The translations under genes were made by a program, and so were the position numbers. Of a DNA stretch of 64,000 bases, positions 2,902 through 49,118 are shown one piece after another. The notes below the pieces were generated by a model, which saw only the letters and a program-made list of their open reading frames with translations, was not told where the DNA came from and did not search any database. The DNA lies in NCBI GenBank assembly GCA_017463185.1, contig JAFTPS010000013.1, forward strand, positions 3,826-67,825. The letters are read 5' to 3'. The DNA comes from Alphaproteobacteria bacterium. Its GTDB lineage: Bacteria; Pseudomonadota; Alphaproteobacteria; Rs-D84. The number at the start of each line of letters is the position of its first letter. Position 1 is the first letter of the stretch.

Positions 2902-2958
2902 AATTTCACCTTGCGAATGCATGAATACTGGTATATCATTGCCGCATAAGGAAACTGA

Positions 2959-2981
2959 GTGGTTAGTGTAAGTGGTTAGTG
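2959..2981. repeat. Left inverted repeat of the four-helix-bundle gene cassette (GTGGTTAGTG-type)
   Basis: gtggttagtgtaagtggttagtg matches the reverse complement of 3339-3361 at 22 of 23 positions. Confidence 0.85.
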
Positions 2982-2997
2982 GCTAGTGGTGGAATAC

Positions 2998-3363
2998 ATG
3001 AAATCAGTCAAGGATTTAAAAGTTTATCAATGTGGATTTAAATTGACGATTGATGTATATAGGGTTACGGCTTGCTTTCCACCGAATGAACAATTTGGGT
3101 TAGTTTCACAGATGCGTAGGGCCGCTGTGTCTGTATGTTCTAATTTAGCAGAAGGGGCGGCGCGTGGAACAACGAAAGAGTATTTGCATTTTGTGTATGT
3201 AGCAAAAGGCTCGGCTGCGGAACTGGAAGCACAAATAGATTTAGCGACTGCATTAGGGTTTGTTGAAAAGGCCAAAGCAGGACAAATACATAAAGATATA
3301 ACGGAAGTTTTAAGAATGTTATCAGGATTGATTCATTCACTAACCACTAACACTAACCACTAA
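2998..3363 (+). CDS. Four-helix-bundle protein (23S rRNA intervening-sequence protein family)
   Basis: LKVYQ..F.L...VY.....[23 protein letters not shown]...GTTKEYLHF....GSAAELEAQ is the family signature. ATG at 2998 (the track start at 2986 is GTG). Confidence 0.8.
3339..3361. repeat. Right inverted repeat of the four-helix-bundle gene cassette
   Basis: cactaaccactaacactaaccac. It encodes the protein C-terminus (LTTNTNH) and pairs with 2959-2981. Confidence 0.85.
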
Positions 3364-9643: not shown

Positions 9644-9739
9644 ATGAGAATTACATATGAACATAAAAAGTGTATAGTTTATTATGTTGCCGTCGTTGCA
9701 ATATTGCTGTGCGGCGTTATGATTGGAATAGGGTATTAA
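9644..9739 (+). CDS. 31-aa single-TM mini-protein (not in ORF track)
   Basis: Strong SD aaagggggg 6 nt before the ATG at 9644. MRITYEHKKCIVYYVAVVAILLCGVMIGIGY, stop at 9737-9739, terminator immediately after. Confidence 0.4.
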   Translation: MRITYEHKKCIVYYVAVVAILLCGVMIGIGY

Positions 9740-9767
9740 AAATCCCGCCATTGGCGGGATTTTTTTC
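9738..9767 (+). terminator. Rho-independent terminator
   Basis: aaaaATCCCGCCattGGCGGGATttttttt. The hairpin is identical to the one at 32811-32837. Confidence 0.85.
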
Positions 9768-9768
9768 A

Positions 9769-9835
9769 GTGGTTAGTGTAAGTGGTTAGTGAATAGTGGC
9801 GGAATACATAAAAAGTTATTAGTGTTTTGTTATTA
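9769..9835 (+). repeat. Solo remnant of the four-helix-bundle cassette 5' end
   Basis: agtggttagtgtaagtggttagtgaatagtggcggaatacataaaaag aligns with 2958-3004, but ATG has become ATA and the ORF is gone. Confidence 0.75.
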
Positions 9836-9892
9836 TAATGTGTGATACGACCATCAACACTGGCATAAAATTAAAATCGCCACAGGGGCGAT
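9828..9892. repeat. Direct repeat copy 1 (about 65 bp, includes a terminator hairpin)
   Basis: The 49-bp core gatacgaccatcaacactggcataaaattaaaatcgccacaggggcgat is identical to 10001-10049. Flanks are partly conserved. Confidence 0.9.
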
Positions 9893-9990: not shown

Positions 9991-10049
9991 CATAATGTAT
10001 GATACGACCATCAACACTGGCATAAAATTAAAATCGCCACAGGGGCGAT
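9984..10049. repeat. Direct repeat copy 2
   Basis: See 9828-9892. This copy lies directly downstream of tRNA-Pro on the minus strand. Confidence 0.9.
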
Positions 10050-10059
10050 TTGAATTTTA

Positions 10060-10136
<77 letters not shown>

Positions 10137-13125: not shown

Positions 13126-13382
13126 AAAACCGTCACTTGATTAAAAATAATAATTATTAAAAAGTATAACGAATTATAACAAATCTAAAAAATACCCAGG
13201 AAATCTGGGCGTTTGAAAATATTATGGGATTAAAATCCGATTCGCGTACGCGTGGGATAGTATCATATTTTTTTGGGTTTTGCAAAAATCTTTGGTGTTG
13301 CGGGCGGGATTTTGGTCCTGGTAAAATTGTAATAACTAGACCAAAAGCATCTAGTGGTTTAATCTTAACGAAAGGAAAGAAT

Positions 13383-14168
13383 ATGAAAAAATTAGCTTTA
13401 ACATCTTTATTGGCTGTATTTGCGGTATCTGGTGCACACGCGGCAAACATTATTGATGGTAATCCATTATACCGCCCAGGTGAAGGTCGTTTTTACAGCA
13501 ATTTTGCGGTAGAATCGCATTCAGAGGCAATTGAAGATTGGGGCATTACCGAAGAATTTGGCTATGGTATTACAAATGATTTGGCTGTATTTATGAAGAC
13601 AGGGGTGTCAGAAGCAGAAGGCTTTGATGCAATGTCTTGGGATGAATTTACAGTTGGATTAAATTATCGTGCGATTGATATGGGCAACTGGAAAGCTGAT
13701 GTGTATGGCGTGTACAGTTTGGACCCTGTATGGGGCGACCATGTTCCATTCTTGGACAAAGATATGACGGAATATACATGGACGTTAGGTATTCGTGGTG
13801 GTTATGTCGGTGAAGGTTGGACATTGGCCGGACATGTAGACTTTGACTATCTGAACAGCGAATCGTTCAACTGGGGTGACGATGGTATGCATAAATTGAG
13901 TGTCGGTGTTGATGGTCAGTTGGTGCTGTGTCCAAAATGGAACCTGATTGCAGGGGTTGAATATACCGGTGTTCTGGATGATGAAACACCAGCAGGTATT
14001 GAAATCAAAGACGCTGGTAAATGGACCGGTAAATTTGGCGCCAACTATAACCTGGACGAAACAAAATACATTGGTGCATATGTCATGGGTGAAATGGAAC
14101 ATTCTACCGGTGATTGGGAATGGGTTGATGGATTTGGGTTTGGTGTCAACTTTGGCATTGAATTCTAA
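13383..14168 (+). CDS. Outer-membrane beta-barrel protein (porin-like)
   Basis: ATG at 13383 after aaaggaaag. Signal peptide MKKLALTSLLAVFAVSGAHA, alternating amphipathic strands, C-terminal ...GVNFGIEF (terminal Phe). Confidence 0.7.
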   Translation: MKKLALTSLLAVFAVSGAHAANIIDGNPLYRPGEGRFYSNFAVESHSEAIEDWGITEEFGYGITNDLAVFMKTGVSEAEGFDAMSWDEFTVGLNYRAIDMGNWKADVYGVYSLDPVWGDHVPFLDKDMTEYTWTLGIRGGYVGEGWTLAGHVDFDYLNSESFNWGDDGMHKLSVGVDGQLVLCPKWNLIAGVEYTGVLDDETPAGIEIKDAGKWTGKFGANYNLDETKYIGAYVMGEMEHSTGDWEWVDGFGFGVNFGIEF

Positions 14169-14199: not shown

Positions 14200-14250
14200 G
14201 AACCGCAACCTTATGTGTATATTGTACACTGTGGTTGCGGTTTTTGTTTG
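14200..14250 (+). terminator. Rho-independent terminator (long hairpin)
   Basis: aaccgcaacc...ggttgcggtt followed by tttttgtttg. Confidence 0.7.
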
Positions 14251-14339
14251 CTGCTTTCTTTTGAATTTTTTACTAGTGCCGGATGCCGTGTACACCGACC
14301 GCTCTAAATTATTTTTATTTATTTTCCCAAGGCAGCGGT

Positions 14340-14972
14340 TTAATTTGTATAATAGCAATTGTTGCTGAATTCATATGTGCCGCTGGTATCTTGTATGGAT
14401 TGTGCGGATGGTATATAGCAGGAAGTTATTGAAGTCGCGCCACCAGATGCGGTTGTGCCATATACATCGCCGGATGATGGACAACGTGCACAAGTATTGC
14501 CGTTTTTATAATAGCCTTGGTTGCAACTAAATGTTGTGCCGCCATCACAGGTTGCGTTACTGGGGCAAATTGTGCAGCCTGTGGATGAAGATGTGGGGCT
14601 GCCATAATATCCGGTTTCGCAGGTGTAATCCTGTATTGTGTATGTGGTGCATTCGGCTGGTGTGTTGTAATCCTCTTTTTCTGGGCAGGTCGTAAATTCA
14701 ATTACGCGCCAGTTTGATGTTATAACATGTGAAGAATAATTAGTTGTTGTGGATGTTGGAACACCGCGATAGGGTAGCCATTCTTCACATTCCATCATAC
14801 ATGGGTCGTCCATTGTATACCAACCGCCTGAATCATTGATTGGTTGGCAGGCGCTGACGTCTACATAAGCGCACGGATTTATTGGGTAAAGGTTGGAATA
14901 TTGAGCGTATATGTTTTTTGTTGTAATACAGGCAATGCAAATATACGCACTTGTGATAATTTTTTTGTTCAT
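14340..14972 (-). CDS. Secreted Cys-rich protein with furin/ephrin-receptor-like (CxxGYY...CxxCP) repeats
   Basis: 210 aa, RBS aggag, signal-like N-terminus. CETGYYGSPTSSSTGCTICPSNATCDGGTTFSCNQGYYKNGNTCARCPSSG. Confidence 0.7.
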   Translation of the reverse strand: MNKKIITSAYICIACITTKNIYAQYSNLYPINPCAYVDVSACQPINDSGGWYTMDDPCMMECEEWLPYRGVPTSTTTNYSSHVITSNWRVIEFTTCPEKEDYNTPAECTTYTIQDYTCETGYYGSPTSSSTGCTICPSNATCDGGTTFSCNQGYYKNGNTCARCPSSGDVYGTTASGGATSITSCYIPSAQSIQDTSGTYEFSNNCYYTN

Positions 14973-15218
14973 TTGTTCTATCTCCTGTGTTTTTTGATTA
15001 AAAGCAAAAAACCGTCAATTTTTTTGACGGTCAGGAGGTTAGTAACAATCCATAGAATTGCGTGCTTATTTATGTATATCGCAACCCTCCTGACCGATGG
15101 TCAGGAGATTTTTTCGTCACAGACAATAAAAAAAGACGCGTTTTTGCGCCATTTTAAGTCTTGTTTGTTGACGCTATGGCAGAGGTTACTACGCCTCATC
15201 GTCAGAATACCTGACGAC
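14973..15218 (-). promoter_or_regulatory. Conserved structured 5' leader, copy A (homolog of 44365-44603)
   Basis: The minus-strand core at 15005-15115 is about four-fifths identical by eye to 44477-44588. It has a CUCCUGACC-nnn-GGUCAGGAG hairpin, a downstream CCUCCUGACCGUC, and a terminator hairpin with a U-run. Confidence 0.55.
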
Positions 15219-15224
15219 GTTTCT

Positions 15225-15253
15225 ATTCTATCAAATCAAGTTTTTTTATGCAA
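15225..15253 (-). promoter_or_regulatory. Sigma70-like promoter (TTGCAT-17-TAGAAT) for leader copy A
   Basis: Minus strand ttgcat at 15253-15248 and tagaat at 15230-15225. Confidence 0.5.
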
Positions 15254-15373
15254 TATTGAATTTAACAAGGGATGTTGTACGGATTAAAAATTTGTCATTG
15301 TTGTGAGTAGGGTAAAATCCTAATTTTTCGCGCTTTTCAAGCGGAAATCTTATATTTTTTTCCTAGTTTTTTC

Positions 15374-15402
15374 TTGACAATGCGGGGGGCTGAGTTTATA
15401 GT
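15374..15402 (+). promoter_or_regulatory. Sigma70 promoter of the str/ribosomal operon (TTGACA-17-TATAGT)
   Basis: ttgaca at 15374-15379, tatagt at 15397-15402. Confidence 0.7.
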
Positions 15403-15554
15403 ATGTTCGCTTTCCGTGTAAATAAGGAAGGTATAAAATACAGAAACCGCTTTGATTTTACAGATTTATAATCCGGCGTTAAGTCGTTGAAATAAGTCTG
15501 ATAGGCGGGGTTTGTGCAGACTAAAAAACGAGTAGAAAAACAAAGAGATTTTGA

Positions 15555-15926
15555 ATGCCAACAGTAAATCAACTGATTCGGAAACCTCGTAAAAAAGTCG
15601 TAGTGAAAAGCACTGCGCCTGATATGATGGAAAACCCACAGAAACGTGGGGTTTGCACTCGTGTTTATACGACGACTCCGAAAAAACCTAACTCGGCGCA
15701 GCGTAAGGTTGCCCGTGTAAAACTGGCAAACGGCCGCGAAGTAACTGCTTATATTCCTGGCGAAGGTCATAACCTGCAGGAACACAGCGTTGTTATGATT
15801 CGTGGTGGTCGTGTAAAGGACTTGCCTGGTGTTAAATATCACATTATCCGCGGTGTTTTGGATACCAAGGGTGTGGATGCACGTAAACAGGGTCGTTCTT
15901 TGTATGGTGCCAAAACCAAGAAATAA
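15555..15926 (+). CDS. rpsL: 30S ribosomal protein S12
   Basis: [10 protein letters not shown]...[16 protein letters not shown]...[13 protein letters not shown]. Confidence 0.98.
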
Positions 15927-32597: not shown

Positions 32598-32706
32598 TAT
32601 TCTTTTTTGTCATTGCGAGCGAACGCGCCTGCCATACGAAGCCTTGGCGTAGTGTGGTGGCAAACCAGTAAATTAGTGTAAGTTGTTAGTGGATAGTGTT
32701 GAAATT
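32598..32706 (+). repeat. Degenerate remnant of the four-helix-bundle cassette 5' region
   Basis: gtcattgcgagcgaa...taaattagtgtaagttgttagtggatagtgttgaaat is similar to 2936-2996. No ORF. Confidence 0.5.
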
Positions 32707-32810
32707 CCGGGGTGGGGGGGGGAAAAGATAGAAATACCAATCCCCCACCCAGGTTTTACTAATTCACTGTCGTTCATAAGTAAAACCGTCCCGCCCCACA
32801 AGGGGGCAGG

Positions 32811-48663: not shown

Positions 48664-48848
48664 CCGACACAGGCGACTGTGTTGGGCGTTACAACCCATA
48701 ACATTAGGTGTCCGTGGGGACACAAAAAACCTCTAACCTTTGGTTGGAGGGCGGCGAATATACCGAATAAGCCCGCTATTTCCTAATGTTATAGTTGTAA
48801 ACCTCCAACCACCAAAGAATGCCTGTGTGGAATTAAACGGAGAGTAGC
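48664..48848 (+). promoter_or_regulatory. Highly structured leader RNA (multi-helix junction), riboswitch or attenuator candidate
   Basis: 9-bp hairpin with GCGA tetraloop (48664-48685). About 20-bp closing helix 48688-48708/48782-48802 enclosing three hairpins. Downstream ACCUCCAACC (48801-48810) can alternatively pair with 48742-48751. Confidence 0.4.
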
Positions 48849-49118
48849 ATGACAAAACAGAAACAACCCAGCAAAACAATGACCCTGCCAAAAACTCTGT
48901 GGGGATTTTATTTTAAGCACGCAATTCACGGTAATGGCTGGATGATTCTGGCAGGTGCAATTTTATCATTTGTTGTTGCTTTTGACCGAGTATTACAACC
49001 ACTTATTCAAAGTTGGACGGTGGCAGAGTTGCTGGAAGAACTGCGACCCGCGATTGAGATAATACCAGACAATCACATTAAACTGCGAATGATGGGGGGT
49101 ACGTACGGCTCTGCGTAG
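48849..49118 (+). CDS. Hypothetical 89-aa membrane-protein fragment (possibly the N-terminal piece of a transporter)
   Basis: LWGFYFKHAIHGNGWMILAGAILSFVVAF looks like one TM segment. Short and isolated, so a gene remnant is likely. Confidence 0.3.
   Translation: MTKQKQPSKTMTLPKTLWGFYFKHAIHGNGWMILAGAILSFVVAFDRVLQPLIQSWTVAELLEELRPAIEIIPDNHIKLRMMGGTYGSA

Follow-up and report, generated by a model that had tools for sequence, protein, structure and literature searches.

Pfam family PF07699 (Ephrin_rec_like, formerly GCC2_GCC3) comprises the cysteine-rich repeat of Eph-receptor-like, ELAPOR and SCUBE-type proteins and of many protist surface proteins and, like the saposin-like domains, is predominantly eukaryotic. 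Near to it stand the furin-like repeats of R-spondin and of the cysteine-rich regions of EGFR and the insulin receptor, as well as the cysteine-rich domains of the TNF receptors. The subject of the present analysis is a bacterial gene that had been predicted to encode repeats of this kind in a small secreted protein, together with the leader RNA preceding it. The gene lies at positions 14340-14972 on the minus strand of a 64,000-nucleotide stretch (hereafter the window, in whose numbering positions are given) of contig JAFTPS010000013.1 (positions 3,826 to 67,825; assembly GCA_017463185.1), derived from an uncultured alphaproteobacterium of the order Rs-D84, which with Candidatus Enterousia is widespread in human and animal guts. 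The comparisons described below support the assignment of its product to the ephrin-receptor-like domain type, and the leader proved to be a previously undescribed structured RNA.

The window protein shares with PF07699 the spacing C-x2-G-x-Y...C-x2-C-P...G-[AS]-T-x3-C and a predicted extracellular location. In contrast to the described PF07699 proteins, however, its family is bacterial, very small (80-320 amino acids), built of only 1-4 units and devoid of a transmembrane segment, kinase or other eukaryotic context, and every run of units leads into a 25-residue tail that is specific to the family, ends in CYYTN and lies outside the PF07699 coverage. The gene and its protein comprise the following parts.

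14340-14972, minus strand: coding sequence of a 210-residue cysteine-rich protein with an export-type N-terminus (open reading frame (ORF) list and translation; ATG start, stop codon 14340-14342).

14904-14972, minus strand: putative Sec-type signal peptide, residues 1-23 (MNKK, hydrophobic core, IYA before the presumed cleavage site and Q after it), read by eye from the sequence.

14622-14903, minus strand: variable N-terminal part, residues 24-117, with 6 cysteines (residues 68-118 predicted as a three-stranded beta sheet).

14547-14621, minus strand: short repeat CETGYYGSPTSSSTGCTICPSNATC, residues 118-142 (motif scan; the unit also occurs in relatives, in 0-3 copies).

14418-14525, minus strand: PF07699-equivalent segment CNQGYYKNGNTCARCPSSGDVYGTTASGGATSITSC, residues 150-185, corresponding to about profile positions 13-48 (from the matches of the equivalent segments of relatives).

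14343-14417, minus strand: conserved tail YIPSAQSIQDTSGTYEFSNNCYYTN, residues 186-210, ending in the family signature CYY[TSK][NEK] (tail listing of 160 relatives; predicted beta hairpin).

14981-14986, minus strand: Shine-Dalgarno (SD) sequence AGGAGA, 8 nucleotides 5' of the ATG, complementary to the CUCCUG boxes of the leader.

Both the reading frame and the peptide quoted in the original prediction (residues 118-168) are borne out by the translation, by homologs and by 17 public contigs that carry a call of the identical protein, in each case flanked by rpsL and a gene for a 261-residue outer-membrane-protein-like (OMP-like) product. The pattern C-x2-G-Y-Y...C-x2-C-P, on which that prediction drew, is present twice, in residues 118-142 and 150-185; translating the window in all six frames gave no further instance. 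Judged by eye, the N-terminus (MNKKIITSAYICIACITTKNIYA followed by Q) resembles a Sec signal peptide, and a similar lysine-rich, hydrophobic N-terminus is found in nearly all relatives; export via Sec appears probable.

Searches were made in databases of 5.8 billion and 1.8 billion proteins. A word-indexed search returned 31 homologs at E≤0.01, the best of them 83% identical; these are unnamed or "hypothetical protein" entries of alphaproteobacterial metagenome-assembled genomes (MAGs), all of them without a precomputed Pfam domain. When 1.84 billion cluster representatives (clusters at 50% identity) were searched with a profile, 1616 clusters were assigned to the family at E≤1e-3 and 755 at E≤1e-10. 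Members follow a modular plan consisting of a signal peptide, a hypervariable cysteine-rich N-terminal part, short repeats and a near-invariant end of 50 residues. The repeat unit, C-x2-G-Y-Y-G-x8-C-x2-C-P-x-N-A-T-C, is present in 0 to 3 or 4 copies per member, while the end reads C-x-R-C-P-S-S-G-G-V-Y-G-T-T-A-x-x-G-A-T-S-I-T-S-C-Y-[IL]- and continues as P-S-G-T-x-F-S-D-S-T-G-S-G-T-Y-T-x-x-C-Y-Y-T-N. The smallest members (78-113 amino acids) are hardly more than a signal peptide and this constant module. Across 150 relatives the cysteines C118, C133, C142, C150, C161, C164, C185 and C206 are invariant or nearly so; the N-terminal part of the window protein, among its homologs, is common to the relative P0001 only. 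N-x-T sequons are also conserved in the family, namely N-A-T of C-P-x-N-A-T-C and, in many relatives, N-G-T of S-T-N-G-T-S-G-C.

When contigs of one bacterial or archaeal genome per species were searched with the tail motif, 24 loci were recovered, 22 of which are titled alphaproteobacterial, Rickettsiales or Candidatus Enterousia. The remaining two belong to an "uncultured proteobacterium" and to a Bacteroides fragilis bin, the latter of which we suspect to be a mis-binned contig. As far as records are named, the family is restricted to uncultured Alphaproteobacteria of the gut (Candidatus Enterousia and its relatives), where it is present in multiple copies per genome (at least five in one MAG). 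Searches of the literature yielded no account of either the family or the leader.

As regards the domain itself, ephrin-receptor-like membership is supported by transitive homology through relatives. The gathering score of PF07699, whose profile has 48 positions, is 23.1 bits, and five relatives score above it: P0207 (38.4 bits), P0180 (31.5 bits, profile positions 1-48 of 48), P0110 (31.3 bits, in three stretches), and P0209 and P0210 (25.3 bits each). In P0207, P0180, P0209 and P0210 the threshold is passed over the segment equivalent to window residues 150-185. The window protein aligns directly with the PF07699 segment of P0207 (56% identity over 70 amino acids, E 5e-12 scaled to 1e12 residues), with P0180 (59% over 63 amino acids) and with P0110 (44% over 117 amino acids), and because of such alignment to threshold-passing relatives, residues 150-185 can be taken as homologous to a bona fide PF07699 unit. 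The constant module of two further relatives, P0008 and P0126, matches profile positions 13/14-48 at 19.6-19.7 bits, and residues 118-142 of the window protein are a shortened copy of the first half of a PF07699 unit. A cysteine pattern conserved in homologs, which had been set beforehand as a check of the original prediction, was indeed found: C-x2-G-x-Y...C-x2-C-P...C is kept in 150 sequences, with C150, C161, C164 and C185 invariant and G153, Y154, Y155 and P165 conserved at 90% or more.

Several results weigh against this assignment. The window protein itself has no match to PF07699 or to a furin-like family in Pfam even at E≤10, and NCBIfam and Pfam together give it no family match; the only hit, "MSC", was rejected as a low-complexity artefact. 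Moreover, just 9 of the 150 relatives reach E≤0.1 for PF07699, even though this is the Pfam family matched by the largest number of members. The resemblance might be convergent and imply no common ancestry with the eukaryotic domains: C-x2-G-Y-Y and C-x2-C-P spacings would be expected in any small secreted protein that is composed of disulfide-stapled beta hairpins and has a high content of G, Y, S and T. Besides the unmatched window protein, convergence is favoured by the position of most relatives under the threshold, by the scatter of weak matches over EGF_MSP1_1, VSP, TNFR_ELAPOR1 and EGF_laminin, by fold searches that stayed non-significant, and by the biased composition of the window protein (T 15%, S 12%, Y 10%, C 8%, G 8%). 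Nevertheless, five relatives lie above a curated threshold, three of them spanning the whole 48-position profile with E values down to 1e-9, no other Pfam family is matched by as many members, and it is invariably one and the same module, the most conserved one, that PF07699 matches, so that convergence seems improbable. The statements on homology and on the family are held with high confidence. Of the original prediction, the ephrin-receptor-like (GCC2_GCC3) part therefore stands by way of the five threshold-passing relatives, although not by any match of the window protein itself.

The furin-like part of the same prediction was not supported. Of PF00757 and related Pfam families, Furin-like, Furin-like_2 and GF_recep_IV have no match in the window protein or in the 150 relatives. 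When the repeat-unit profile was compared with PDB sequences, the furin-like (FU) repeats of R-spondin-2 came out on top at a non-significant E of 0.15-0.8; the whole-family profile found only an antibody complementarity-determining region containing "CARGYYGSS", and P0110 found nothing in the same sequences. As to the predicted structure, AlphaFold 2 (AF2; 150 sequences) gave, in model 2, a predicted local distance difference test score (pLDDT) above 90 for most of residues 70-210, which are modelled as short beta hairpins; the N-terminal part from residue 70 onwards scores mostly 80-94 and the tail (residues 186-210) 94-98. A fold search with AF2 model 1 placed EphA2 and TNF receptors on top, albeit non-significantly, whereas Foldseek with model 2 returned unrelated, non-significant matches only, EphA2 and TNF receptors not being among them.

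The label "eukaryote-style" had also been read as a hint of lateral transfer, that is, acquisition of the module from a eukaryote (a gut protist or the animal host) and its later expansion in the lineage. Such an origin would suit the occurrence in one family of both PF07699 and a saposin-like domain, each mainly eukaryotic. It would likewise suit the predicted dependence of these bacteria on a partner (PMC12306168). Yet the searches, which covered 5.8 billion and 1.8 billion proteins, gave no close eukaryotic homolog, the named matches being without exception alphaproteobacterial MAGs, and the two-unit profile A7 recovered from a large protein database only short family members and no eukaryotic proteins. 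In addition, the members resemble the eukaryote-derived profile only remotely (25-38 bits), promoters, leaders, SD sequences and signal peptides of the genes are of bacterial type, and the family is deeply diversified. A transfer from eukaryotes is consequently given a low probability, and a recent one is not supported, no sign of it having been found in the sequences compared; since a close eukaryotic homolog is absent from these searches, "eukaryote-style" should be understood as a domain type and not as a recent transfer.

In its general design the family also recalls the variant-specific surface proteins (VSP) of Giardia (PF03302) and the cysteine-rich surface antigens of ciliates, which are likewise multi-gene and cysteine-rich, are exported as is predicted for the present family, contain CXXC-type motifs and combine a hypervariable N-terminal part with a conserved C-terminal end. 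Matches to PF03302 were seen in relatives only, at 15.9-19.6 bits (E 5e-4 to 6e-3) and hence below the gathering score of 31.4. Unlike the Giardia proteins, members of the window family have no C-terminal transmembrane helix or CRGKA tail, their end (...NNCYYTN) being polar, and nothing points to expression of one copy at a time, since every copy is preceded by a promoter and a leader of its own.

Saposin-like domains are known from membrane-active proteins, and one such domain forms the N-terminal part of the relative P0062, which scores 26.3 bits with SapB_2 (gathering score 21). At locus L139 the ORF after the leader also encodes a family member with a saposin-like variable part. Exchangeable N-terminal parts of this sort, the small size, the cysteine richness and the predicted export of the products, and the small cysteine-rich peptides encoded by other ORFs after the leader would all be in keeping with a family of secreted toxins or bacteriocin-like effectors, in which the N-terminal part would be the toxic portion and the constant tail would mediate delivery or receptor binding. 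The inspected loci, however, hold no conserved adjacent immunity, transporter or processing gene, the N-terminal part of the window protein shows no similarity to a toxin family in Pfam or NCBIfam, and the gene has no match in the phage and plasmid collections; a toxin function is judged to be rather unlikely.

The second main subject is the RNA upstream of the gene. Known attenuators and riboswitches, the closest described systems, are 5' untranslated regions (UTRs) that begin at the transcription start, fold into several covarying helices and place a terminator with a U tract before the SD sequence, all of which is found in the leader, together with a predicted mutually exclusive alternative pairing. 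The leader differs from them in matching no Rfam 15 family, in preceding genes for proteins of predicted export and not metabolic genes, and in repeating SD and anti-SD-like boxes three times. The corresponding features of the window are listed here.

14973-15217, minus strand: structured 5' leader RNA, copy A, about 235-245 nucleotides (nhmmer, alignments A4 and A8, RNAalifold, pair counts).

15225-15253, minus strand: sigma-70-type promoter TTGCAT-N17-TAGAAT directly upstream of the leader (same position in aligned leader copies).

15002-15032, minus strand: intrinsic-terminator-like hairpin GACCGUCAA...UUGACGGU followed by U6 (terminator scan).

44370-44613, plus strand: leader copy B, 5' of an ORF for a 67-residue signal-peptide protein and a gene for a 597-residue repeat protein (repeat search, nhmmer).

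48715-48840, plus strand: diverged partial leader copy C (nhmmer E 4.5e-7; sequence).

That a conserved leader exists, as had been claimed, is evident from the 81% identity between copy A at 15007-15111 (minus strand) and copy B at 44477-44586 (plus strand). When the alignment was extended upstream, a conserved cTTGnnn-N17-TATAAT box was seen to end about 6 nucleotides before the conserved element, and the element is therefore a 5' UTR. CAGGAG is conserved in the leader alignments at the SD position. A hidden Markov model built from four copies placed the leader upstream of 17 of the 24 loci found by protein, and a 19-base leader pattern retrieved 114 metagenome stretches. In most of about 90 loci scored, the first ORF starts 44-62 nucleotides after the element, and the orientation is fixed. 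The ORFs after the leader almost always have a signal-peptide-like N-terminus; about half clearly belong to the cysteine-rich ephrin-receptor-like family, and among the others are ORFs for small cysteine-rich proteins, for 66-67-residue ...TSYVDTAV...PTPPLP peptides and for larger repeat proteins.

With regard to individual copies, the 67-residue signal-peptide protein after copy B (44604-44807, plus strand) reads ...TSYVDTAVSSKVDT...PTPPLP and has a 66-residue counterpart in locus L045, while the 597-residue signal-peptide protein (44829-46622, plus strand) contains about ten 31-residue repeats IPENLFAGIxGAPAxxMF; neither of the two has a Pfam match. Copy C has no U-tract terminator and precedes an ORF of 89 codons (48849-49118) whose product is without a signal-peptide-like N-terminus. 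In locus L004 of another genome (5707-5982, plus strand) the leader stands before a two-gene unit encoding a 91-residue protein with 13 cysteines, unrelated to the family, and then the 134-residue family member P0002.

The leader is a structured RNA without an Rfam family, and this conclusion is well supported. At gathering thresholds, Rfam found in the whole window only two tRNAs and Alpha_RBS, with no match to the leader; at E≤10, the 4227 families of Rfam 15 gave in region 14900-15560 chance-level matches only, the best scoring 19.5 bits against a threshold of 39. RNAalifold returned the same fold from 17 copies and from 73 copies with pairwise identities below 92%, comprising about seven covarying helices and an intrinsic terminator. 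Its parts are a 5' hairpin, a long hairpin ending in GGCGCGC/GCGCC, a CUCCUGA/UCAGGAG hairpin, a further hairpin with the conserved loop GAAUAUAUUGAAUAA, and two long-range helices, in one of which GGGG.UGAGAAC pairs with GUUCUCA.CCUC and in the other a 4-nucleotide variable box with a second one. The terminator (helix 10) is 98% paired, with compensatory changes in 3 of its 7 pairs. Over the whole leader, whose structure was derived from the same alignment as was scored, 96.4% of cells are paired (shuffles 85.2%, slid controls 35-52%), 37 of 59 pairs show compensatory changes, double-change cells number 532 (150 and 44-72, respectively), and the covariation score is 0.387 (0.167 and 0.05-0.09); none of 500 shuffles reached any of the observed pair measures. 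The minimum-free-energy fold of copy A has a z of -7.4.

The presence of a promoter and an intrinsic terminator raises the alternative that the element is an independent small RNA gene which merely adjoins the genes of the family. The terminator ends about 20-30 nucleotides before the SD sequence, and the resulting transcript of about 210 nucleotides would be plausible as a small RNA. There is, however, neither room nor a conserved promoter between terminator and SD sequence, most of the roughly 90 loci share one orientation of the element and a distance of 44-62 nucleotides between it and the start codon, the CUCCUG boxes can pair with the SD sequence downstream, and the layout is exactly that of riboswitch and attenuator leaders. 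An independent small RNA is the least probable of the alternatives considered and a very unlikely one.

Turning to how the leader might act, the SD-like box GGUCAGGAGG can alternatively pair over 10 bp with the downstream box CCUCCUGACC in all 73 copies, and the latter overlaps both a long-range helix and the foot of the terminator. The CCUCCUG box is complementary to the real SD sequence CAGGAG, with which it is paired in the minimum-free-energy fold. In copy C all three boxes are changed together (CCTCTAACC, GGTTGGAGGG and CCTCCAACC), as they also are in L004. Such an arrangement is consistent with a switch of the attenuator or riboswitch type that is coupled to SD masking. This switch is questioned by two observations: the alternative (antiterminator) helix is almost invariant, so that covariation cannot confirm it, and three copies show a change of the SD-like box that is compensated in the 5' box but not in the 3' box. 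Of the claim that the gene is "controlled by the conserved leader", the association has been substantiated by the 17 of 24 loci and the covarying RNA, whereas regulation as such would be a prediction from the layout. More speculative, and regarded as a possibility well short of probable, is the proposal that the leader represents a new signal-sensing RNA class (a riboswitch or a protein- or RNA-responsive attenuator) switching on a whole regulon of variable, eukaryote-like cysteine-rich surface or secreted proteins in gut Alphaproteobacteria (Rs-D84/Enterousia) that depend obligately on a partner, these proteins being the interface with the host or partner and the ephrin-receptor-like module with its CYYTN tail a display or export handle peculiar to the lineage.

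Three other models of the upstream region were considered and rejected. A three-segment attenuator with local GAGG...CCUC and ACAAU/AUUGU hairpins gave way to the long-range helices P2 and P3 indicated by covariation. An invertible promoter flanked by inverted CCUCCUGACC boxes was dismissed in view of a spacing of only about 55 nucleotides and of the better fit of RNA-level covariation, and a promoter inside the leader (TTGAAT-N17-GATTGT) because the window copies do not share its -35 box and a TATAAT that is much better conserved lies upstream.

Taken together, the gene product would be a Sec-exported, disulfide-rich protein of an uncultured gut alphaproteobacterium with a reduced genome, in which a swappable, hypervariable N-terminal "payload" is joined to a constant ephrin-receptor-like unit and a beta-hairpin CYYTN tail. 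The constant module may be a shared scaffold or handle by which the proteins fold, attach to the surface or are exported, and the variable part may be the functional or antigenic face toward a partner cell or the environment. Transcription would proceed from the sigma-70-type promoter through the structured leader of about 235 nucleotides with its intrinsic terminator, and the CUCCUG boxes would pair with either the internal SD-like box or the real SD sequence. Because the leader contains a terminator and CUCCUG boxes complementary to both, a signal probably controls expression through attenuation, SD masking or both. This overall picture, in which a partner-dependent bacterium regulates a set of variable proteins that are secreted or located at its surface, is considered rather probable, while its part concerning function is put forward only tentatively. 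Two further points speak against it. In the inspected loci none of the neighbouring genes hints at a function, and the gene order around paralogs is not kept. Furthermore, of the 17 cysteines of the window protein an odd number, 15, lies after the presumed cleavage site and thus cannot all be paired within the chain, which suggests a free or intermolecular cysteine in a mature protein that is otherwise probably disulfide-bonded; by a crude count, 110 of 172 relatives likewise have an odd number of cysteines after residue 25.

Downstream, the gene faces a convergent neighbour (13224-14168, plus strand) that encodes a beta-rich, OMP-like protein with a signal peptide, called as 261 amino acids in public assemblies and having no Pfam match; it keeps the same position on the contigs carrying the 210-residue gene. 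Between the two lies one further feature.

14201-14242, no strand assigned: hairpin AACCGCAACC...GGTTGCGGTT between the gene and the convergent OMP-like gene, probably a shared terminator (sequence; partial terminator-scan match at 14237-14254).

Elsewhere in the window, a 46-nucleotide repeat (AGTGGTTAGTGTAAGTGGTTAGTG...) is present in three copies (2958-3003, 9768-9813 and 32668-32713), of which the one at 9768 directly follows a terminator-like hairpin (AAAATCCCGCC...GGCGGGATTTTT, 9733-9766) and the one at 32668 is flanked by similar hairpins. Two 58-nucleotide direct repeats (9835-9892 and 9992-10049), 98% identical and 157 nucleotides apart, are situated just upstream of a tRNA gene (10063-10136). 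A 1011-residue ResIII/DEAD helicase-like protein (55675-58710, plus strand) consists in its C-terminal third of tandem repeats of about 72 amino acids (216 nucleotides). The signal-peptide protein encoded at 46646-47725 (minus strand) belongs to the choloylglycine (bile salt) hydrolase family CBAH (E 2.4e-64), which fits the gut habitat.

Bacteria of the Enterousia/Rs-D84 group have genomes under 1 Mb and lack the TCA (tricarboxylic acid) cycle, respiration and many biosynthetic pathways; an obligately symbiotic or parasitic life is predicted for them (PMC12306168). The way in which they interact with their presumed partners is not known (PMC12306168), and a multi-copy family of hypervariable proteins of predicted export is a concrete candidate for this interface. 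The family is missed by current Pfam and NCBIfam annotation and carries a domain otherwise known mainly from eukaryotic surface proteins. While the protein represents a bacterial variant of a known domain type, the leader RNA is the most novel element of the locus, and it provides a handle for finding the whole regulon and the signal that activates it.

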